A stretch of DNA of 64,000 bases from Candidatus Omnitrophota bacterium. GTDB lineage: Bacteria > Omnitrophota > Gorgyraeia > Ghiorseimicrobiales > Ghiorseimicrobiaceae. The notes under the pieces were generated by a model, which saw only the letters and a list, made by a program, of their open reading frames with translations, had not been told where the DNA came from and made no database searches. Below are positions 1 through 64,000 of the stretch, one piece after another; position 1 is the stretch's first letter; every line of letters starts with the position of its first letter. The stretch lies in the NCBI GenBank assembly GCA_030681595.1, contig JAUXSB010000037.1:64319-128318 (forward strand), read 5' to 3'. Both the position numbers and the translations under genes were made by a program.

Positions 1-793
1 AATATCGCGCGAGGCGCGCCTCATGGATGCTCTTTCTGAGCTTGATTCTGATTATGACTTTTGTTTTATAGATTGCCCTCCGAATTTAGGCCTTTTGACG
101 ATTAATGCCATCCGCGCGGCAAGTGAGGTAATTGTCCCGGTTGAGGCAAGCCGTTTCGCGGTTGAGGGCGTAAAGAAGATAATAGAAATTATTGATTTAA
201 TCAAGGAAAGGCTGGCGCACCCGGTAAAATATAAAGTTTTAGTGACTATGTTTGATTCGCGCTTGAGGCATTCTTTTGGGGTTTTGGATTCAATCAATGA
301 CGTTTTTAAGAATAAGCTTTTTGAAACTATGATTCATCTTAATGTAAAGCTTAAGGAGGCGCAATCAAAAGGCCTGCCTGTAATCAGCCATGATAAATAC
401 TCAAGGGGCGCAAAAGATTACCTCAATCTTGCCCGCGAAGTAACCAAAGATGACAAGCAAAAACCAACAGTTATTAAAGAAGGTGCATTAGAGGCAGTCA
501 TGAGAGCGGAACTGCCTAAATTTAAGGAGGTAGCTTTTGGCTTTTTAGCGCCTTACGCAAAAGATGTTTATATTGTCGGAGATTTTAATAGTTGGACAAA
601 GTCCAATGAGAGCCGGATGGATAGAGATAACAATGGAAGGGGTATGTGGTCTATAAACCTTCCTTTGCTGACCGGCTCATACCGTTATAAATTTATTGTG
701 GATGACGCCTGGGTTGAGGATCCAGCTAATCCGACAAAAGAAAAGAATCCCTTTGGCGGCATAGATTCCTTAATTAATGTAGAGATTGGGTAA
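1..793 (+). CDS. Partial CDS (5' end outside window). C-terminal two-thirds of a ParA/MinD-family ATPase fused to a C-terminal CBM48 / AMPK-beta glycogen-binding-like domain.
   Basis: Translation shows the ParA/Soj deviant-Walker region 'DFCFIDCPPNLGLLTINAIRAASEVIVPVEAS'. The C-terminus reads 'VYIVGDFNSWTKS...GMWSINLPLLTGSYRYKFIVDDAWVEDPANP', which matches the CBM48 / E-set glycogen-binding signature. The ParA N-terminal Walker A lies upstream of the window. Confidence 0.75.
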   Translation, partial: ISREARLMDALSELDSDYDFCFIDCPPNLGLLTINAIRAASEVIVPVEASRFAVEGVKKIIEIIDLIKERLAHPVKYKVLVTMFDSRLRHSFGVLDSINDVFKNKLFETMIHLNVKLKEAQSKGLPVISHDKYSRGAKDYLNLAREVTKDDKQKPTVIKEGALEAVMRAELPKFKEVAFGFLAPYAKDVYIVGDFNSWTKSNESRMDRDNNGRGMWSINLPLLTGSYRYKFIVDDAWVEDPANPTKEKNPFGGIDSLINVEIG

Positions 794-848: not shown

Positions 849-1847
849 ATGAAAACCGCGCTTTTATTTGAAAAGGCAGGGGATTCCAAAGTGCGCTGTT
901 TCTTGTGCGCGCACAAGTGCCTGATATCTGATGGGCATTTTGGCATTTGTGGAGTACGCAAGAATATAGAAGGCACACTTTATACTTTTTCATACGGGCG
1001 TTTAATCGCAGCGAATATTGACCCGGTTGAAAAAAAGCCGCTATACCACTTCTTGCCCGGGACAAACTCATATTCCATAGCCACATTGGGTTGTAATTTC
1101 ATGTGCGGCTTTTGCCAAAATTGGCAGATATCGCAAGAGAAGGGGAAGGAAAACGAGGCCGCGAAATTTATTAAACCCTCAGAAATTGTCGCTTCCGCCA
1201 TAAAAAGTGATTGCCGCAGCATTTCCTATACCTATACTGAACCGACCATATTTTTTGAATACGCCTTAGATATCGCGAAAATTGCCAAAGAAAGCGGGCT
1301 GTGCAATATTTTTGTTACTAACGGTTATATGACTAAAGAAGCCCTGCTTATGCTTAAGCCTTATTTAGATGCCGCAAACATTGATTTAAAGTCATTTAGC
1401 GATGGTTTCTATACGAAGGTATGCGGAGGAAGGCTTTCCCCGGTTTTGGATTCCATAAGGCTTATGCATGATTTAGGCGTATGGGTTGAGATAACCACGC
1501 TTATTATCCCTCATCTAAATGATTCCAAAGAGGAACTGGAAGGGATTGCCGCCTTTATCGCTGGTATCGATAAGAATATCCCCTGGCACGTTTCGCGGTT
1601 TCACCCTGATTATGAAATGCTGGATAATATTCCTACGCCTATTGAAACTTTGAAACTCGCTAAAGCAATAGGGGAGGAGAAGGGGCTTTGTTATGTTTAT
1701 ATCGGAAATGTCGGCGAAGAAGAGAGCACCTATTGCCCGGCTTGCAAGAAGCCGGTAATTAAGAGGTTTATTTTTGATATTTTAGAAAATAATTTGTCTG
1801 TTAATCGATGTAAGTATTGCAATTTTCTGATAGGCGGGGTATATTGA
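849..1847 (+). CDS. Radical SAM enzyme, PFL-activase-like (AmmeMemoRadiSam-system / PflX-type architecture).
   Basis: N-terminal Cys cluster 'CFLCAHKC...GICG' followed by the CxxxCxxC motif 'GCNFMCGFCQNW'. Length is 332 aa. Confidence 0.6.
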   Translation: MKTALLFEKAGDSKVRCFLCAHKCLISDGHFGICGVRKNIEGTLYTFSYGRLIAANIDPVEKKPLYHFLPGTNSYSIATLGCNFMCGFCQNWQISQEKGKENEAAKFIKPSEIVASAIKSDCRSISYTYTEPTIFFEYALDIAKIAKESGLCNIFVTNGYMTKEALLMLKPYLDAANIDLKSFSDGFYTKVCGGRLSPVLDSIRLMHDLGVWVEITTLIIPHLNDSKEELEGIAAFIAGIDKNIPWHVSRFHPDYEMLDNIPTPIETLKLAKAIGEEKGLCYVYIGNVGEEESTYCPACKKPVIKRFIFDILENNLSVNRCKYCNFLIGGVY

Positions 1848-1855
1848 TGCCATTC

Positions 1856-1897
1856 CACACCCCCGCGGTGTGCATTTATGCACACCGCGGGGGTGTG
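1856..1897. repeat. Perfect 17-bp inverted repeat (CACACCCCCGCGGTGTG / CACACCGCGGGGGTGTG) with an 8-nt loop; GC-rich palindromic element.
   Basis: Read directly in the intergenic spacer between the radical SAM gene and uppP. There is no flanking T-tract. Confidence 0.7.
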
Positions 1898-1912
1898 AAG
1901 ACAGTAAGTTAA

Positions 1913-2731
1913 ATGTCTATATTTGAATCTATAATTTTAGGTATAGTGCAGGGGGTAGGGGAGTTTCTTCCTATAAGCAGCTCCGCTCATTTAATTATTG
2001 TCCCTTACCTGTTAAATTTAAAGCCGCACAGCCTAACTTTTGATGTGGCGCTGCACTTGGGTACACTCTGCGCCATAGGGGCCTATTTTTTTAAAGATTG
2101 GCTTAAGCTTTTTAAGGAAGGCTTCTTGAGCTTAAAATTACGTACCCTCCAAGGCGCGCCTGAACGCAGGCTTTTTTGGTTTATTTTTATAGCGACTATT
2201 CCCGGCGCTTTAGCCGGAAAGCTTCTTGAGGAAAAGGTGGAAACTGTTTTCAGAAATCCTCTTTTAGCGGCTTCGGTTTTGGGAGGCTTTGCTTTTATCT
2301 TATATTTGGCACAGAAACTAGGCAAAAATACAAGGTTTTTAGGCGATATGAAACTAAAGCAGGCTTTTTTAATCGGAGTAGTACAGAGTTTTGCTCTTTT
2401 ACCGGGAATTTCCCGCTCCGGAGCCACCATGGCCGCAGGCCTGGCCTTAAATTTTAAAAAGGAAGAGGCGGTGAAATTTTCCTTTTTACTTTCTTTCCCG
2501 ATTATTTTAGGGGCCGGGCTTTTAAAAATTAAAGATATTTTTTCTTGTTTTTTAAACGGCGAAGCAAAAGCCTTTCTCGCGGGTTTTATTGCTTCCGCGT
2601 TTTTCGGGCTATTATCGATACATTTTCTTTTAAAGTTTATCAGAAAGTATTCTTTTAATTTATTCATTTGGTACAGGATTATTGTGTGTGTGTTGGTGGC
2701 GGCGGTTGTTATGCTGCGTAGTAGAGGTTAG
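1913..2731 (+). CDS. uppP: Undecaprenyl-diphosphate phosphatase (UppP/BacA).
   Basis: 'GVGEFLPISSSAHLII' and 'LPGISRSGATMAAGL' are conserved BacA motifs. Polytopic membrane protein of 272 aa. Confidence 0.85.
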   Translation: MSIFESIILGIVQGVGEFLPISSSAHLIIVPYLLNLKPHSLTFDVALHLGTLCAIGAYFFKDWLKLFKEGFLSLKLRTLQGAPERRLFWFIFIATIPGALAGKLLEEKVETVFRNPLLAASVLGGFAFILYLAQKLGKNTRFLGDMKLKQAFLIGVVQSFALLPGISRSGATMAAGLALNFKKEEAVKFSFLLSFPIILGAGLLKIKDIFSCFLNGEAKAFLAGFIASAFFGLLSIHFLLKFIRKYSFNLFIWYRIIVCVLVAAVVMLRSRG

Positions 2732-2732
2732 G

Positions 2733-3080
2733 ATGAATTTTCGTGTACTTTTCATAGTGGCGGCTTTATTTTGTTGTGGTTGTTCTGATGCACGCCTCAT
2801 GGGTAAGGAAGGCAGGCTTTATTTGGGGATTCCGTTTGGCCAGAGTGCCTCCACGATGTCTGCGCGTAAAATGATCCCTTATAAATTCGGCTTGGTTAAG
2901 GTAGGTATGACTAAACAGGATGTCCTTGATAAATTCGGCGAGCCGGCATCTATGAGTATGTCTCGCGATAATTATTGGATATGGTATTATAAGTCAGTTT
3001 ATAGCGGGGATATCTCGCTAGGTACCGTAGAAGAAATATACATTTGGTTTGATGATTATAGGGTAATTAACCCGCCATAA
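2733..3080 (+). CDS. Small lipoprotein with a BamE/SmpA_OmlA-like domain.
   Basis: Internal Met start. Signal peptide plus lipobox 'AALFCCGCS'. Body reads 'VGMTKQDVLDKFGEP...SRDNYWIWYY', typical of BamE-like proteins. Confidence 0.55.
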   Translation: MNFRVLFIVAALFCCGCSDARLMGKEGRLYLGIPFGQSASTMSARKMIPYKFGLVKVGMTKQDVLDKFGEPASMSMSRDNYWIWYYKSVYSGDISLGTVEEIYIWFDDYRVINPP

Positions 3081-3302
3081 TGAAGGCGGAAATCAGAGCC
3101 GAATGGGGCCCGCCGCGATCATTATCCAAACTAAAGTAGAAGGCTTTAGAATTAAATACTTGTATAAGATAAATACCATGTTATAATGAGTATGTACCCA
3201 TAATAAATGGGGGGTTACTTTGAGTAAATACTCTAAATTTGCTTAAAATTTTATTGAAGATTGACAAATTTACCTTGAGCGAATGCGAAGGGGTAAAAAA
3301 CC

Positions 3303-3728
3303 ATGATTAAATCCCGAGGCAGGCCGATAAAACCCAGAAATATCCGCAGGCACCCCCAAATTCATCAATTTAGCCCGCGTGGAAGAGCCGGCAGGCCGGA
3401 CGAAATAGAGCTAAAATTAGAAGAATTTGAAGCCATAAAATTGACGGATTTTATCGGCTTAAATCAGAAAAAAGCATCAAAAATGATGGGTATATCCCAA
3501 CAGACTTTTAGCCGGATTATAAGGCATGCGCGTAAAAACATTGCCAATGGCTTGATTATGGGCAAAATTATTAAGATTCAGGGTGGGCATTATCGTATTT
3601 CGCACCACCCGGAAGTAGCACTTTCGGATAACGTAGATAGTCAAGGCCCAGCTGATTTTGGCAGCTTTCGCGCAGAATTAGACACAAGGCCGGGAAATGC
3701 CCAATCTAAACCATCTTATAAACCTTAA
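3303..3728 (+). CDS. DUF134 (UPF0251) family predicted DNA-binding protein.
   Basis: 'IELKLEEFEAIKLTDFIGLNQKKASKMMGISQQTFSRIIRHARKNIANGL' is a sigma-70 region-4-like HTH typical of DUF134. Confidence 0.55.
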   Translation: MIKSRGRPIKPRNIRRHPQIHQFSPRGRAGRPDEIELKLEEFEAIKLTDFIGLNQKKASKMMGISQQTFSRIIRHARKNIANGLIMGKIIKIQGGHYRISHHPEVALSDNVDSQGPADFGSFRAELDTRPGNAQSKPSYKP

Positions 3729-3937
3729 AAAGAAGGCTTTTTTATTTCATGTTTAACTTCCTATAATGTATCTTATGTTAAGTTGACGATATGAGCTATA
3801 TTGACGTAACCCATTGCATAACAGTTAGTTATTATAATTCGGGGATTTTCTGTGGATAAGCGGCTTTTGGATTACTTAGATTTACTTACTTTTTTATAGT
3901 TTTATGTTTGGCGGGTATTAGCTGTGGTTTTTGAGGG

Positions 3938-4312
3938 TTAAAGCATGGTTATGTTGAGGTTATGGTCTCTAAAGTAATTATAAATTTTATATACGGAAAA
4001 TGGATCTATCTCTATAAACCTGATACCGGCATCAAAGCATAAATTGGGGTGATTTTTGGTTTCGGATTCATAGACCCATGCGACTTCGCCTTTTGCCGGT
4101 AGGGATTCCTTTTCTCCTAATAATCTTATTTCTATGCTTAGCCTTGTGCCCACCTTTAGTTTTTCGGCTAAACACAGCCGTATGCCTCCGCCGCTGATAT
4201 TTTCTACCGAAAGAGCGTCTCTTTTGCCTATGCGCAGGCCACAGCGGTACCTTATACCGATCACATTACTTAGGTTAACTAATCTTTTATGCCTTCTTCT
4301 GTTGCTTGCCAT
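3938..4312 (-). CDS. Stand-alone PilZ-domain protein (c-di-GMP receptor candidate).
   Basis: 'RRRHKR' (RxxxR) and 'ENISGGGIRL' (DxSxxG-type) motifs. Confidence 0.7.
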   Translation of the reverse strand: MASNRRRHKRLVNLSNVIGIRYRCGLRIGKRDALSVENISGGGIRLCLAEKLKVGTRLSIEIRLLGEKESLPAKGEVAWVYESETKNHPNLCFDAGIRFIEIDPFSVYKIYNYFRDHNLNITML

Positions 4313-4329
4313 GTATTATATTAATTATA

Positions 4330-4908
4330 TTAGTAGTAGCCTTCTTGCCAGAGGCCTATTTTTTGAGTACGTGCTTTTTCCTGAAGCTGCCTAAACATAT
4401 CCGCATATTTTACGTTTGGCGGTATAGTCATAATCTTTGCGTATCCGGCTTCAATAATTTTAGCGTTAACAAATGTTCCGTCTTCAAGAAATATATAGGC
4501 TAATAATCGCTTGTATTTATCGCGTTTTTCTACATCAAATTCAAGGCGCGCTTTTTTATTCAAAAGTATTTCTTGGGTAAAGCTTTTGGCCAAAGCGCCC
4601 ATCTTTTTAATGCTTGCTATGTCTTTTTTGGCACGCCTTGCCTGGCGCAGGAGTTTTTCACTCTCATGGTATTCAGGTGTGTCTATCCCTATTAGCCTTA
4701 CCCAGGAGCCGTCTTTTAATTTTACTGTATCGCCGTCAGCTACATAGCTGACCAGTACAACATTATTATAAGCGTATTTTGGGCTAAAGGGAACAGAAAA
4801 TTTTGAAAAAGCGTATACTGCGGCTAAAATAAGAGCTAGGGAAACCGGCAGGATTTTCCAGAGCTTTTTGTGAAATATATTTATTTTACCCACTTTTTTA
4901 TTATACAT
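4330..4908 (-). CDS. Staphylococcal-nuclease (SNase/thermonuclease) homolog with an N-terminal membrane anchor.
   Basis: 'VSYVADGDTVKLKDGSWVRLIGIDTPE' is a classic SNase motif. Confidence 0.75.
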   Translation of the reverse strand: MYNKKVGKINIFHKKLWKILPVSLALILAAVYAFSKFSVPFSPKYAYNNVVLVSYVADGDTVKLKDGSWVRLIGIDTPEYHESEKLLRQARRAKKDIASIKKMGALAKSFTQEILLNKKARLEFDVEKRDKYKRLLAYIFLEDGTFVNAKIIEAGYAKIMTIPPNVKYADMFRQLQEKARTQKIGLWQEGYY

Positions 4909-5860
4909 TAGGTTTAATATTTAGTCCAGCAAATCTCGCAAGGCCTTGCGATTCCTGCACCCATCCGGAAGTTAACCCGAGTTTTTTCATTATGCCTGTG
5001 GCTATTTCGTATTCTTCGCAGGATATGCGCCGGTTAATTAGCGGAAATTCGCATGTCTTGTAGCAAGGAAAATATTGGCTCATTAGTGAGATATGGCATT
5101 GGCCGGATAATTCATTTTTTATAAAATACAAGATTTTCTCTGTACCGGCAATATTATTCGGAAGCACTAAATGCCTGATAATTATGCCTTTTTCTATGAC
5201 TCCATTAGGGTTTATTGCCGCGTTTCCTGCCTGTCTATACATTTCTTTTACCGCCTTTTGGTTAAATGAAGGATAGTCGTAAGCATTCGAGTATTTTTCC
5301 GCTATGAGGGCATCAGCATAGCGCATATCTGGAAGGTAGATATCTATTATGCCGTCAAGCAGCCTTAGAATAGGCACAAGTTCGTATCCGCCGGTATTGT
5401 ATACTAGAGGTATTTTTAGGCCTTTTTCTATGGCAACGCGGAGTGCTTCTAAGATTTGAGGCATAACATGCGTAGGAGTTACCAGATTAATATTATGTGC
5501 CCCTTGATGTTGTAGCTCCAGCATAAATTCGGCGAGTTCTTCTTTTTTTACCTCTCTGCCCTCTCCTTCTTGCGATAATTTATAGTTTTGACAGTATACG
5601 CATTTTAAATTGCAGTGCGTAAAAAAAATGGTGCCGGAACCGCTTGTTCCTGAAATTGGCGGTTCTTCTCCGTGATGGAGGAAATAACTGGTGACAATGG
5701 CGTTTCTACCGGTTTTGCAAACTCCCTTTTCGTCTTTTAGGCGGTTTATGCGGCATTTTCTTGGGCAGATAACGCAGGATTCCAGCAGTTTTTTGGCCGA
5801 TTCAACCCTTTTTATTAATTCTCCTGTTTTGTAGAGGTTAAGGTATGAAGGGTAAAGCAT
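4901..5860 (-). CDS. Radical SAM protein, PflX/COG1313-like (PFL-activase-like paralog).
   Basis: N-terminal 'CVICPRKCRIN...GVCKTG' plus 'THCNLKCVYCQNY'. Confidence 0.6.
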   Translation of the reverse strand: MLYPSYLNLYKTGELIKRVESAKKLLESCVICPRKCRINRLKDEKGVCKTGRNAIVTSYFLHHGEEPPISGTSGSGTIFFTHCNLKCVYCQNYKLSQEGEGREVKKEELAEFMLELQHQGAHNINLVTPTHVMPQILEALRVAIEKGLKIPLVYNTGGYELVPILRLLDGIIDIYLPDMRYADALIAEKYSNAYDYPSFNQKAVKEMYRQAGNAAINPNGVIEKGIIIRHLVLPNNIAGTEKILYFIKNELSGQCHISLMSQYFPCYKTCEFPLINRRISCEEYEIATGIMKKLGLTSGWVQESQGLARFAGLNIKPNV

Positions 5861-5864
5861 AGGG

Positions 5865-6779
5865 TTATTGTGTTAGATTTGCTCCGTCTTTAGTGCAGAA
5901 TTTATATTCGGGAGGGTAATTTTTGCCGCATTTCGGGCATCGTTTTAGTATCTTTGAAGGATTTTTTTCTTCTTTATTGGGCTGTATCTCTTGCCCGGCC
6001 TGGTTAATTTTTTGCAGATCGATCTCTTTTTTGGCATTATTAATCCTTTCATCTATAGCCGGATGGGATTCAAGAAATGCGATATGGTAATTTATCCCTT
6101 TTTTCTTTTCTTCTTCTTTAAGTTTTTCAAAAAACGTGATCATTCCTTCCGGCTTAAAGTCGGATTTTAACGCGTATTTAATCGCCAGCCTGTCGGAAAG
6201 CCGCTCGTCTTCCCGCGAGTAACCCAATGCGATAAGGTTAAATACGGTATTTACGGCGCGGTTTAATTCTACGGAAGTCGCGTTCCTAAGGGCAAGGCCC
6301 ATGATTAGCTGATAGCCTAAGCTGACCTGTAATTTCTTCGCGGCGTGGCGCGCAGCAATATGGCCTATTTCATGCCCTACCACACAGGCAAGTTCGTCAT
6401 CACTGGCTATGTCCATTAACCCGGAGTTAACATATACAAAGCCGCCCGGAAGCGAAAAAGCGTTTAGGCCTTCGTCTTTTACTACCTTAAAATAATATTT
6501 TAAGTCTTTGCGGTCTGAAATTTCCGCTATTTTTTCGCCGATTTTATCAAGCCGCGCAATAGCTCTAGCGTCTTTAGATAAAGGGTATTGCAGCTCAATT
6601 TGTTTTGAGATTACCTTTCCTAAAGAGGCTTCTGACGGGGTATCTATTAAGACGAGCTCTTTTTTTTCTGTCGCGGGATTATAGATTGTCGCGCATCCGC
6701 ACATAAAGAAAGCGCACACGACCCAAGCCGTCGCTTGGGTTCCCCGGCGCACAACGCAAAGCGATAATCGTTTAAACAT
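5865..6779 (-). CDS. M48-family Zn metalloprotease lipoprotein with a C-terminal zinc ribbon.
   Basis: HExxH 'VVGHEIGHIAARH', lipobox 'FFMCGCA', C-terminal 'CPKCGKNYPPEYKFCTKDG'. Confidence 0.75.
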   Translation of the reverse strand: MFKRLSLCVVRRGTQATAWVVCAFFMCGCATIYNPATEKKELVLIDTPSEASLGKVISKQIELQYPLSKDARAIARLDKIGEKIAEISDRKDLKYYFKVVKDEGLNAFSLPGGFVYVNSGLMDIASDDELACVVGHEIGHIAARHAAKKLQVSLGYQLIMGLALRNATSVELNRAVNTVFNLIALGYSREDERLSDRLAIKYALKSDFKPEGMITFFEKLKEEEKKKGINYHIAFLESHPAIDERINNAKKEIDLQKINQAGQEIQPNKEEKNPSKILKRCPKCGKNYPPEYKFCTKDGANLTQ

Positions 6780-8456: not shown

Positions 8457-9842
8457 CTATCTCGGGGGGGATTTAATGTTATATTTTTTCATTTTATTGT
8501 AAAGCGTGCATCGGTTTATGCCAAGTACTTCTGCGGTTCTTTTCTTGTTCCATGCCGCGTTATTTAAAGCGGTTATAATTGTTTGTTTTTCCGGTTCGCT
8601 GATGATATCTTTAAGGGATTTTGCGCTTCCTTCAACGATGGTTTTTTCGCTGCGAAACAGGTGCGCCGGTATATGCGCGCGTGTAATTTTATCGGACTTT
8701 GCGATAATAACCGCGTGCTCAATAGTGTTTTCTAATTCGCGTATATTACCCGGCCAGTTATAATTAGAAAAGAGGTCTAGGATATCTTTTGATATGCCGG
8801 ATATGTGAGTATTATTTCTGAGGTTAAATTTATCTATAAAATAATTAGTTAAGGCGGGGATGTCTTCTTTTCTTTCCCTTAAAGGCGGGATATGGATAGG
8901 GATTACATTCAGGCGGTAGTATAAATCTTCCCTGAATTTACCGGTTTTTATTAGTGTTTCCAGGTTTTGGTTAGTCGCAGCAATTATTCTTGTGTCCGTT
9001 TTAATGGTTTTTGCGTCTCCCACATTTTCAAATTCGCCTTCTTGGAGCACCCGCAGGAGTTTGACTTGTAAAGGCGTGGTGAAAGTGTCTATTTCGTCCA
9101 GGAATATTGTACCCTTGTCAGCCAGTTCAAAGCGTCCTTTTCTGTCTTTTATCGCTCCGGTAAAAGAGCCTTTGATATGGCCGAACAACTCGCTTTCTAA
9201 AAGGTTTTCCGGTAGGGCTCCGCAGCTGATTTCCACAAAACGATTATTTTTTCTTATTGGGTCATTCTGGTGTACCGCTAAAGCTATCAGCCTTTTGCCT
9301 GTCCCGCTTTCCCCGGTTATTAGTACCGTGGCTTTGGTGCCGGCAATAGTCTCAATCATTGTATAAATTTTCTGCATGGGAAGGCTGCCACCTATCATGC
9401 TGCAATAGCTATTGCGTTTTATCCCCGCCAGCTCTTCCTTTAACAAGATATTTTCTTCGATAAGTTTTCTTTGCTCAGATATCTTCTGAATGATGATTTT
9501 TATTTCGTTGTCTACCAGCGGCTTAGTAACATAATCAAATGCGCCTAATTTCATTGCTTCTACCGCTGTTTCAATATTGCCATGGCCTGTTATCAGGATT
9601 ACTGAAACTTTTGGTTTATCTTTTTTTATTGCTTTAAGTAATTCTATGCCATCCATTCCCGGCATTTTCACATCGGTAATAACAATATTAACGTTATTTT
9701 CTTTTATCTTTTGTAATGCTTCCGTAGCAGAAGACGCGCTAATTACCTTATAGCCTTCCAGGCGCAATATTTCATGCAGAGATTTTCGTATGAGGGGTTC
9801 GTCGTCAACAACTAAGATATGTTCAGGGTTATTGGTGCTCAT
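8457..9842 (-). CDS. Sigma-54-dependent response regulator (NtrC family: REC + AAA+ + Fis-type HTH).
   Basis: 'LVVDDEPLIR' with 'DVKMPGMDG' (REC), 'GESGTGKRLIALAVH' (Walker A), 'GSFTGA' (GAFTGA variant), C-terminal 'KKRTAEVLGINRCTLYNKMKKY'. Confidence 0.9.
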   Translation of the reverse strand: MSTNNPEHILVVDDEPLIRKSLHEILRLEGYKVISASSATEALQKIKENNVNIVITDVKMPGMDGIELLKAIKKDKPKVSVILITGHGNIETAVEAMKLGAFDYVTKPLVDNEIKIIIQKISEQRKLIEENILLKEELAGIKRNSYCSMIGGSLPMQKIYTMIETIAGTKATVLITGESGTGKRLIALAVHQNDPIRKNNRFVEISCGALPENLLESELFGHIKGSFTGAIKDRKGRFELADKGTIFLDEIDTFTTPLQVKLLRVLQEGEFENVGDAKTIKTDTRIIAATNQNLETLIKTGKFREDLYYRLNVIPIHIPPLRERKEDIPALTNYFIDKFNLRNNTHISGISKDILDLFSNYNWPGNIRELENTIEHAVIIAKSDKITRAHIPAHLFRSEKTIVEGSAKSLKDIISEPEKQTIITALNNAAWNKKRTAEVLGINRCTLYNKMKKYNIKSPPR

Positions 9843-11142
9843 TCGGTATGTTTTCTGAGGGTATAGTGATAGTAAAAGTAGATCCTTTGCCTATTCCGCT
9901 TTCTAGGCTTATATTTCCGTGATATCTTTCAATAACATCGTAGCATATTGCAAGGCCTAGGCCAGCTCCTTTTTCTATTGATTTTGTGGTAAAGAATGGT
10001 TCAAATACCTGATTAATACTCTCTTGCGGTATGCCGCAACCCGTGTCACTTATTTTAATTTTGACAGAGGTAGCTTCTTTGTGGGTGGTTATTTTTAGCG
10101 TCCCCCCTTCTTCCATTGCCTCGCAGGCATTTTTTATGAGGTTTGTGAATACATGCTTAATGCCTTTATCGGTAATCTTGGGAAGGTTTTGGCCGTAATT
10201 TTTGATTACCACCGCATTATTTTTTATGGATAAGTTTTTATTCATGAGCGCTAATGATTCATCAAGTGTTTTATTGACATCTATAGGTGATTTTTTCATC
10301 GGGTCATGCCGCGAAAACTCCAGAAGTGAGCGTATGATATCGGCAATACGGTTAAGCCCCCCTTTGATTTCATGTAAATATTCAGCCGTTATATCCTCTT
10401 TAACGCGTTCAAGGCAGAGGTTGGTGTATCGTATTACGCCGTCTAAAGGATTATTTATTTCATGAGCGATGCCGGAAGATATTTTTCCTAAAGAAGCAAA
10501 TTTTTTTGCCAGGTTAAGCTGTTTATCCAATTCGTTTTTTTCAAAGCGCAGCCTTTCTATCTTACCTAATTGTGTATTAATCAGGGCATCTTGAGAGCTG
10601 ATGATTTCTTTTGTTTCATCCAGGAGTTTTATCCGCTCAAATACAATAGAAATAAAGGATGAGAGTATCAAAAGCTGGTTCATGTCTTCTGCCGAGAATG
10701 CTTTCTTTGAAGTTTTATCGGTAATATTTATAACGCCGATTAACGTCTCCCGCATAAACAAGGGGATACTTAAGAATGAATTAGTTTTATAGTGATTAAG
10801 GCGGTTATGGTTATTTTTAAACCGCCTGTCCCTGTTTACATTCCTGACTAAAAGCGGCTTTTTTTCCTGTGCTACCATGCCGGCAATCCCCTCGCCGATT
10901 TTTTGCCTGGTGTTGCCTAAACGGTTAAGGTTTTCTTCCTGCCCCCGGGCAATTTTTAAGGTTAATTCACGGCTTGTTAAGTCAAAAAGTAATATTGAGC
11001 CGCGCTCAGCACCAAGAAACTCCAGGGTTTTGTTTAATGAAGTATGGAATAATTCCTTAATGGTATTGCTTGCGGCAATAGCCTTTAAGGTATCGGTTAA
11101 TTCTTTATTTTTGTTCTTGTGGCTGAGCAGATTTACTAACAC
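9829..11142 (-). CDS. GAF-domain sensor histidine kinase (GAF + HisKA + HATPase_c); partner of the sigma-54 regulator.
   Basis: H-box 'GIAHEINNPL'. G-boxes 'DTGCGIP' and 'GAGLGLAICYDVI'. The N-terminal GAF-like region has no TM segments. Confidence 0.85.
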   Translation of the reverse strand: MLVNLLSHKNKNKELTDTLKAIAASNTIKELFHTSLNKTLEFLGAERGSILLFDLTSRELTLKIARGQEENLNRLGNTRQKIGEGIAGMVAQEKKPLLVRNVNRDRRFKNNHNRLNHYKTNSFLSIPLFMRETLIGVINITDKTSKKAFSAEDMNQLLILSSFISIVFERIKLLDETKEIISSQDALINTQLGKIERLRFEKNELDKQLNLAKKFASLGKISSGIAHEINNPLDGVIRYTNLCLERVKEDITAEYLHEIKGGLNRIADIIRSLLEFSRHDPMKKSPIDVNKTLDESLALMNKNLSIKNNAVVIKNYGQNLPKITDKGIKHVFTNLIKNACEAMEEGGTLKITTHKEATSVKIKISDTGCGIPQESINQVFEPFFTTKSIEKGAGLGLAICYDVIERYHGNISLESGIGKGSTFTITIPSENIPNEHQ

Positions 11143-63667: not shown

Positions 63668-64000
63668 TATAGATACCTATAGATATATTCCGGGATGTGG
63701 TAGCGGATACCTGTGAGTATGAAGCCTAATATTTTTGCCTCTGCCTGCAAAAGCAGGCTTTGGGCGTGTGCTAGTGCACCGCGCTGGGTCCTGCCTGCCT
63801 GTACTACCAAAAATACGCCGTCCGACTGTGCGCCTAAGACTTGCGGGTCGGTAAGAGGTATGACCGGCGGCGCGTCAAATAAGATATAGTCGTATTTGGT
63901 TCGAAATGCAGCAATAAGGTTTTTCATCTTGTTAGATGCTAAAAGCTCTGCCGGATTATGCGGTATTTTACCCGCGGCGATAACGTCTAAATTGCTTACA
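63667..64000 (-). CDS. Partial CDS (N-terminus outside window): C-terminal catalytic end of a BY-kinase (Wzc/EpsB-type tyrosine autokinase) with a Tyr-rich tail.
   Basis: 'YDYILFDAPPV' (Walker B-like), 'GFILT', and C-terminal 'RYHIPEYIYRYL'. Confidence 0.75.
   Translation of the reverse strand, partial: VSNLDVIAAGKIPHNPAELLASNKMKNLIAAFRTKYDYILFDAPPVIPLTDPQVLGAQSDGVFLVVQAGRTQRGALAHAQSLLLQAEAKILGFILTGIRYHIPEYIYRYL

Follow-up and report, generated by a model that had tools for sequence, protein, structure and literature searches.

The 64,000-nucleotide (nt) stretch of a Candidatus Omnitrophota genome analyzed here (contig JAUXSB010000037.1 of assembly GCA_030681595.1, positions 64,319 to 128,318 of the forward strand, hereafter the window) opens inside a gene that joins a ParA-type ATPase to a C-terminal carbohydrate-binding module (CBM) of the CBM48/AMPK-beta type. 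The robust module is a tight pair of genes, this fusion and a gene for a small partner protein encoded directly upstream of it, beyond the left edge of the window. Our reading, to which we give a probability of about 0.45, is that the pair may be a two-gene ParA/MinD-type module that positions cytoplasmic alpha-glucan (glycogen) particles, a mechanism proposed from the sequences and from what is known of relatives of their domains.

The fusion protein and its distribution

The fusion is read in one open reading frame (ORF) on the plus strand at window positions 2-793, entering at the left edge and ending with TAA at 791-793. This covers the last 263 residues (codons 101-363 and the stop) of a 363-residue protein, and the translation includes the strings VYIVGDFNSWTKS and YRYKFIVDDAWVEDPANP quoted in the first-pass annotation, which had claimed a ParA-type ATPase fused to a CBM48/AMPK-beta-type module. 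That claim stands, both domains exceeding their curated Pfam cut-offs in the one ORF. On the 263 residues, the ParA-type family AAA_31 scores E = 1.9e-20 (74 bits against a cut-off of 27), AMPK1_CBM (PF16561) scores 46.1 bits against 26.8, and CBM_48 (PF02922) scores 35.9 bits against 22.4. With the C-terminal 107 residues alone, the two CBM families score 48.5 and 38.6 bits, respectively. The only NCBIfam matches for the fusion are below threshold, namely to ParA, RepA, MinD and BcsQ models and to the CBM48 region at the N-terminus of GlgB branching enzymes, and since the equivalog cut-offs are not reached, the ATPase is, as judged by these models, an unnamed subfamily.

A protein search recovers the full 363-residue product as MDP1853733.1 (P0001), which is 100% identical to the window part, is annotated as "AAA family ATPase", and comes from a Candidatus Omnitrophota metagenome-assembled genome (MAG) on a contig of 300,102 bp. 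The full gene is also found on a Logan contig that extends the window upstream, at L001:7967-9058, and it is there that the 5' 300 nt of the fusion gene and the partner gene, both upstream of the window, can be seen. Recovery of the full gene brings in the deviant Walker A motif KGGCGKT at residues 10-16, which has the KGGxxK[ST] form with the signature lysine. The protein has no signal peptide and so should be cytoplasmic.

The AlphaFold2 model, built on an alignment of 118 sequences, has a mean predicted local distance difference test (pLDDT) score of 85.5 and gives a ParA fold over residues 1-248, a linker at 249-261 with pLDDT below 50, a helix at 262-270, and 6 beta strands over residues 275-360 with block-mean pLDDT of 82-90. 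In window coordinates, all on the plus strand, the C-terminal part of the ParA/Soj-type ATPase domain (residues 101-248, recognized by AAA_31, phmmer and Foldseek) occupies 2-445. The linker occupies 446-523, where by the model and by conservation the disordered residues (about 249-261) are followed by the short conserved helix carrying an LPK motif. The CBM48/AMPK-beta-type beta-sandwich (residues 275-363) occupies 524-790, an assignment drawn from Pfam, the match to AMPK beta1, residue conservation and the model. No PDB entry spans both a ParA and a CBM domain.

Directly 3' of the stop codon, RNA folding finds a hairpin at 811-838 with a U-rich tail, the whole element lying at 811-846 on the plus strand. 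The hairpin has a predicted energy of -20.4 kcal/mol and z = -4.2, and none of 200 shuffles was equally stable. Consensus promoter and terminator scans gave background-level results and did not flag it. The element is likely an intrinsic terminator, in which case the transcription unit would end with the fusion gene.

The distribution of the fusion was surveyed in proteins and in genomes. In the protein search there were 119 more clusters, of which 118 are full length (350-385 residues), and in all of these Pfam recognizes both a ParA-type and an AMPK1_CBM/CBM_48 domain. For the genomes, one per GTDB species was scanned with an alignment of the CBM only as the query, which gave 80 loci; there are 84 loci in all, each of up to 20 kb (up to 10 kb on either side). 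A single ORF matches both the ATPase and the CBM profiles, which were home-built hidden Markov models (HMMs), in 72 of the 84. Only locus L038 has the two on split ORFs, an ATPase of 232 residues (9157-9852) and a CBM of 119 residues (9950-10306), the result either of a sequencing frameshift or of gene decay. L038 is also what can be said for the fusion being an assembly or frameshift artefact that unites two genes, an explanation whose probability we regard as negligible: the 72 genome loci and the 118 protein clusters share the single ORF and the conserved linker, and their lengths fall within 354-381 residues. The same ORF is present across independent NCBI, JGI, ENA and Logan assemblies, and on that recurrence we reject an assembly artefact.

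Besides Omnitrophota, the fusion occurs in MAGs labelled Thermodesulfobacteriota, "delta proteobacterium", Syntrophorhabdales, Pirellulales and Planctomycetia, where it lacks the partner and has neighbors with no link to glycogen. Public records name its homologs "AAA family ATPase", "ParA family protein" or "hypothetical protein". In the literature, as represented by open-access papers and bioRxiv, we found no description of a ParA-glycogen, ParA-CBM48, ParA-storage-granule or Omnitrophota-glycogen system of this kind. In 6 loci, being the Thermodesulfobacteriota, Syntrophorhabdales and "delta proteobacterium" copies (L043, L047, L053, L067, L068 and L070), there is no membrane partner upstream, and a conserved 145-residue FN3-like protein starting with MPFIRKRRIWWEP is found at +1 of a fusion of 377-440 residues.

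The catalytic residues of the ATPase are all in place. Q9, K10, G11, G12, G14, K15, T16 and T17 are invariant among the 118 homologs, as are the Walker A' residues D37 and D39, the latter aligning with D60 of Myxococcus xanthus ParA (MxParA), and the Walker B residue D124 (window nt 71-73). With these residues the domain is a complete Soj-like deviant-Walker-A ParA, a family marked also by ATP-dependent dimerization and by ATPase activity that a partner stimulates. The closest solved sequence is the chromosomal ParA of M. xanthus, 8RAY, with a phmmer score of E = 1e-53, followed by the Soj proteins of Helicobacter pylori (HpSoj) and Thermus thermophilus (6IUB and 2BEK; the E values range from 1e-53 to 1e-38). 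Foldseek aligns the model to the Soj/ParA structures with template modeling (TM) scores of 0.86-0.93, a root-mean-square deviation (rmsd) of 1.8-2.0 Å and 36-43% identity, and places McdA, MinD, FleN and BcsQ as further structural neighbors at 18-26% identity. Against chromosomal Soj/ParA, the ATPase is 40-43% identical, with a TM score of 0.91 and an rmsd of 1.8 Å.

For comparison among the fusions, those with an ATPase HMM score over 400 were taken as clade A. The main clades A, B1 and B2 have mean ATPase identities of 45-53% to one another and of 34-40% to the Soj proteins of M. xanthus, H. pylori and B. subtilis, while those 3 Soj proteins average 51% among themselves. A neighbor-joining tree puts all 68 fusion ATPases in one clade that excludes the 3 Soj proteins, and with only 3 outgroups is to be read as indicative. 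No ParB-like ORF was found in the 84 loci (20 kb or less each) or in the 64-kb window, either by phmmer with a B. subtilis Spo0J sequence as the query or by the GERRxRA motif. The fusion is an orphan parA, unlike chromosomal ParABS, which is defined by parA-parB adjacency.

As to whether this ATPase might bind DNA, R187 is invariant in the family and corresponds to the Arg of the DxR motif, R189 of B. subtilis Soj. K216, found in at least 90% of family members, aligns with HpSoj K230, one of the DNA-contacting lysines K199, K227, K230 and K247 of that protein (PMC6393308), and also with MxParA R238, for which the R238E variant lacks non-specific DNA binding (PMC12462528). Binding of the nucleoid is plausible on these alignments.

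For the C-terminal domain, a PDB sequence search with the last 98 residues has its top matches to the AMPK beta1/beta2 glycogen-binding modules, E = 6e-8 for rat 1Z0N/1Z0M, with GlgB and neopullulanase ranking after them. The 118 database homologs and the 72 genome copies (190 sequences) were aligned with rat AMPK beta1. The equivalents of W100 and W133 are invariant, that of G147 is kept in 189 of the 190 (the exception being a gapped sequence), and that of K126 is K or R in 188. The position of L146 is F or Y, and that of N150 is D or N, mostly D. In the window, the key codons of the module are those of W298 (nt 593-595) and W337 (nt 710-712), and also those of K330 and G352. Mutations of W100, K126, W133, G147 and L146 in AMPK abolish or weaken glycogen binding or the effect of glycogen on AMPK (PMC6274970). 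The glycan surface is thus conserved across clades with ATPases only 36-53% identical, which argues that the module still binds alpha-glucan or glycogen.

The CBM itself is a widespread module in prokaryotic proteins. A word-indexed protein search with the CBM domain alone gave no candidate, and an exhaustive search of representative proteins gave 7,684 at E ≤ 1e-3, which mostly have 3-18 tandem copies, four-copy AMPK-beta-type proteins of about 480 residues being frequent; this count speaks to the module and is uninformative on the distribution of the fusion. In one MAG, the same CBM subtype is fused to a glycoside hydrolase family 57 (GH57) enzyme of 856 residues (L081:12579-15146). In 2 Sedimentisphaerales MAGs (L077, and L084:9854-10225), it is a stand-alone gene of 124 residues situated directly after an ORF that weakly matches the GH57 profile (24-27 bits).

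The upstream partner and the gene neighborhood

The gene directly upstream of the fusion, at L001:7263-7856, encodes a hypothetical protein of 197 residues. It is at position -1 and co-oriented in 44 of the 44 clade-A loci that have upstream DNA, with a median gap of about 24 bp, and in 3 other long Omnitrophota contigs it is 186-188 residues long. The first-pass annotation had envisaged a one-protein polysaccharide-granule system, and this part of it is not supported, as the partner gene is conserved directly upstream in every Omnitrophota-type locus with upstream DNA.

The most conserved segment of the partner is an N-terminal amphipathic helix of about 20 residues, MDKKEIYEHLAKIYLD, followed by a Lys-rich stretch. 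The N-terminus reads MDKK[DE]IYEHLAKIYLDASSKKKK, and the N-terminal peptide is also given as MDKKEIYEHLAKIYLDASSKKK. Then comes a transmembrane helix, a hydrophobic 19-mer from about residue 34 with a mean Kyte-Doolittle value of 2.35. The flanks of this helix average 6.6 Lys plus Arg on the N-side versus 2.4 on the C-side, a bias that predicts an N-in, C-out topology. The C-terminal 125 or so residues are modeled as a beta jelly-roll (pLDDT 72 overall and 70-93 in the domain), with the best PDB match to CBM11, 1V0A, at E = 1.7e-4 and an rmsd of 3.0 Å over 122 columns, and with CBM4 and then CBM16 as the next most similar folds. Pfam and NCBIfam assign the partner to no significant family and have only sub-threshold matches to CIA30, CBM_11 and CBM_17_28. 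The partner is accordingly described as a predicted single-pass inner-membrane protein, with a cytoplasmic N-terminal peptide and a periplasm-facing jelly-roll.

In the 9 loci of clade B1 the upstream gene is longer and of like design: an LAxxY[FL] motif comes with a transmembrane helix and a beta domain, and the beta domain is homologous to that of the partner by hhalign profile-profile comparison (95% probability, E = 2.8e-8). The upstream genes of L071, L078 and L082 were judged by eye to have the same architecture. Partner proteins usually bind at the ParA dimer interface and stimulate hydrolysis by means of short N-terminal amphipathic peptides next to basic residues (PMC12462528). Because such peptides commonly stimulate ParA ATPases, the partner peptide, which conservation picks out as the candidate, is probably the ATPase activator. 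It is unlike the LGRGL-type motif of ParB.

Farther upstream are genes of alpha-glucan metabolism. The order on L001 is a GH57 protein (428 residues), GlgA (TIGR02095, 570 bits against a cut-off of 328), a GH57 4-alpha-glucanotransferase (690 residues), an Alginate_exp-type outer-membrane barrel, the 197-residue partner and the ParA-CBM48 fusion. The 3 other long Omnitrophota contigs have Alginate_exp, a GH57 of about 510 residues, the partner and the fusion. Within clade A, a GH57 gene is found two genes upstream of the fusion in 35 of 44 loci, and an Alginate_exp-family barrel with a signal peptide is found two to four genes upstream in 29 of 44, contig ends accounting for most of the shortfall in both counts. 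The clade-A GH57 has no signal peptide and is in this sense cytoplasmic; the nearest solved protein is the amylopullulanase of Aquifex aeolicus (8ZYI/9IHT, E = 1e-80), a GH57 enzyme that cleaves alpha-1,4 and alpha-1,6 bonds. In L074, GlgC (NTP_transferase plus LbH_GLGC) is encoded on the minus strand four genes downstream of a clade B1 fusion. Glycogen genes are therefore adjacent in two different arrangements, with GlgC near one divergent copy, and we take this as supportive, not decisive.

Two small proteins are often encoded on the downstream side. One, of about 134 residues, is found one to three genes downstream of the fusion in 37 of 43 clade-A loci (for example L002:11923-12330, L003:11117-11587 and L004) and has a Lys-rich tail of about 60 residues with KKK repeats, resembling histone H1, and a C-terminus resembling EF-Tu domain 2 at a sub-threshold Pfam score. 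It could be a nucleoid-associated or McdB-like factor, but as an alternative McdB-like partner it was set aside: it is absent from the window and hence not a core part. The other, a small membrane protein of about 108 residues from the DUF4870/MamF_MmsF family, is at +1 in 24 clade-A loci (L002:11085-11402) and is also absent from the window.

The window genes that follow the fusion have no bearing on the finding, and part of the gene order over 849-6779 recurs in L003. They encode a radical-SAM enzyme (849-1847), UppP/BacA (1913-2731), a BamE-like lipoprotein (2733-3080), a DUF134 protein (3303-3728) and, on the minus strand, a PilZ protein (3938-4312), an SNase (4330-4908), a second radical-SAM protein (4901-5860) and an M48 peptidase with a zinc ribbon (5865-6779). 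Much farther along, at about 27800-60400 on the minus strand, a long run of co-oriented ORFs, two of them of about 1,000 residues, resembles a glycosyltransferase/exopolysaccharide cluster. A partial ORF at 63670-63999, also on the minus strand, has a weak ParA-domain match (16 bits) and resembles the C-terminal ATPase of a BY-kinase/Wzc-type polysaccharide co-polymerase.

Mechanism and alternatives

If the module does position glycogen, the ATP-bound ParA dimer would present two CBM48 modules and bind glycogen multivalently, recognizing its cargo in cis with no adaptor. A second attachment of the dimer, by way of the basic residues R187 and K216 that it retains, would be to a matrix, for which the nucleoid is the likeliest candidate. 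Like the peptides of ParB, McdB and MinE, the N-terminal peptide of the partner would dock at the interface of the dimer and set off ATP hydrolysis, with release at the inner membrane. Repeated binding and release would then spread the glycogen particles, prevent their coalescence and aid their inheritance by both daughter cells, and the periplasm-facing CBM11-like domain could link the cycle to an envelope site or glycan.

Several observations weigh against this scheme. The Thermodesulfobacteriota, Syntrophorhabdales and Pirellulales copies have neither the partner nor glycogen-gene neighbors. The presumed activator is on the membrane, whereas a canonical ParA activator rides on the cargo, and with the activator so placed one cannot tell which way transport would run. 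The Omnitrophota clade shares much of its gene order around the locus, down to the downstream genes for DUF4870, the Lys-rich protein and DUF134, which makes the adjacency of GH57 and the porin weaker evidence than it seems at first sight. Also, of the HpSoj lysines that contact DNA, K227 is replaced by L/V213, K247 by Y233, which adjoins an invariant K232, and K199 by F192, leaving one of four strictly retained; because three of the four are replaced, nucleoid binding is uncertain.

The membrane location of the partner lends itself to a different account, one that we consider unlikely, in which the pair is a membrane tether or scaffold in the manner of BcsQ or MinD. The partner peptide would recruit the ATP dimer to the inner membrane, the nucleoid would play no role, and glycogen, or nascent or imported alpha-glucan, would be anchored at a site set by the CBM11-like domain and the AlgE-like barrel. 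This would suit a partner whose predicted topology is N-in with a single membrane pass and a CBM-like domain outside the cytoplasm, the conservation of the Alginate_exp barrel upstream in 29 of 44 loci, the partial loss of the Soj DNA-binding lysines, and the presence of BcsQ-type ParA/MinD ATPases among the structural neighbors. It is harder to square with a cluster in which no membrane-embedded glycan synthase or translocase is conserved and the neighboring alpha-glucan enzymes are cytoplasmic, without signal peptides. Moreover, the ATPase is much nearer Soj (40-43% identity) than BcsQ/MinD (18-26%), R187 and K216 are conserved, and the porin adjacency may merely reflect lineage-wide synteny. 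That closeness to Soj can be turned into another argument, namely that the fusion is simply the chromosomal Soj/ParA of the lineage with an acquired glycogen sensor, CBM48 occupancy tuning dimerization or DNA binding so that segregation or division is coupled to carbon reserves, analogous to glycogen sensing by AMPK beta. The 40-43% identity extends across the ATPase domain, the best structural matches are to chromosomal ParA/Soj, and JGI annotates the protein as 'chromosome partitioning protein'. Yet parB is adjacent in 0 of the 84 loci, the conserved partner is private to the fusion and its peptide is not of the ParB type, and the fusion ATPases form a separate clade, at a greater distance from Soj than separates the Soj proteins of different phyla. 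The copies from Thermodesulfobacteriota, Syntrophorhabdales and Pirellulales, furthermore, occur in groups that carry canonical parAB. On balance, we think the sensor explanation quite improbable.

Both of these accounts keep glycan as the ligand, and a further one gives it up: the C-terminal E-set domain might be a non-carbohydrate module for protein-protein interaction or dimerization, with a cargo such as the membrane partner itself. Folds of the E-set/CBM48-like kind do serve non-glycan roles elsewhere, a weak sub-threshold match to a type IX secretion system (T9SS) plug family being an example, and the fusion copies in other phyla are without glycogen-gene neighbors. We nevertheless rate this as very improbable, given that the tryptophans that stack on glycan and the K/R, G and D/N positions show either no change or only conservative substitutions across the 190 sequences, that the same CBM subtype is fused elsewhere to a GH57 enzyme (L081), and that glycogen genes adjoin the fusion in two different gene arrangements.

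Relation to known systems and implications

Among the closest known systems is McdA/McdB, which positions carboxysomes. Like McdA, the fusion is a ParA-type ATPase of orphan status whose gene lies next to those of a mesoscale cytoplasmic cargo (the cargo being presumed in our case) and is accompanied by a small dedicated partner with a charged N-terminal region, and McdA (6NON/6NOP) is a structural neighbor with TM scores of 0.81-0.85. It differs in that the CBM48 cargo module is fused to the ATPase, and that the presumed activator is a predicted inner-membrane protein rather than a cargo-bound adaptor. Also, the Walker A motif keeps the signature lysine, and the identity to McdA is about 24%. 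With ParABS (8RAY, 6IUB, 2BEK), the fusion shares all of the catalytic motifs and the basic position of MxParA R238/HpSoj K230, but it lacks the parB/parS context, has the extra C-terminal CBM48 and another partner with another N-terminal motif, and belongs to a separate clade with three of the four HpSoj DNA-binding lysines replaced.

AMPK beta CBM48 (1Z0N/1Z0M/2F15) is the best sequence match for the CBM, with equivalents of W100, K126, W133 and G147 conserved; here, however, the module is on a bacterial P-loop ATPase and not on a kinase scaffold subunit, and it has a longer inter-strand loop (RMDRDNNGRGMW), an aromatic residue at L146 and mostly D at N150. BcsQ-BcsR, of the cellulose secretion system, combines a ParA/MinD-family ATPase linked to polysaccharides with a small protein whose gene is immediately upstream, and BcsQ is both a structural neighbor and a sub-threshold NCBIfam match (76.5 bits against a cut-off of 158). 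The identity to BcsQ is only 18-20%, BcsQ has no CBM, and the fusion cluster has no conserved synthase, PilZ or BcsE-type component. PhaM, which is not known to be an ATPase, tethers polyhydroxybutyrate (PHB) granules to the nucleoid and makes direct contact with both DNA and PHB synthase. The likeness is in the concept of a carbon-storage granule linked to the nucleoid for distribution to daughter cells; the difference is that here a ParA ATPase cycle would act and the polymer would be alpha-glucan.

ParA/MinD ATPases position DNA, carboxysomes, chemoreceptor arrays, flagella and division sites. To our knowledge, each of the known cargo systems acts through a separate adaptor protein on the cargo, and we know of essentially no study of how glycogen is distributed between bacterial daughter cells. 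We suggest, as a tentative and somewhat doubtful extension, that the pair might be the first dedicated bacterial machine for glycogen-particle positioning and inheritance, with cargo recognition by a cis-fused CBM48 and an ATPase cycle governed by the cytoplasmic peptide of a transmembrane partner. If true, the organization of the carbon store would be coupled to an envelope signal or site, and the ParA family would gain both a cargo class, storage polysaccharide, and a new logic in which cargo is recognized in cis and the activator is on the membrane. The gene pair gives a concrete handle on glycogen inheritance, its parts being small and heterologous expression possible, which is important for a host phylum, Omnitrophota, that is uncultivated. 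A further use of the fusion could be as a small synthetic tether that attaches alpha-glucan particles to DNA or membrane.

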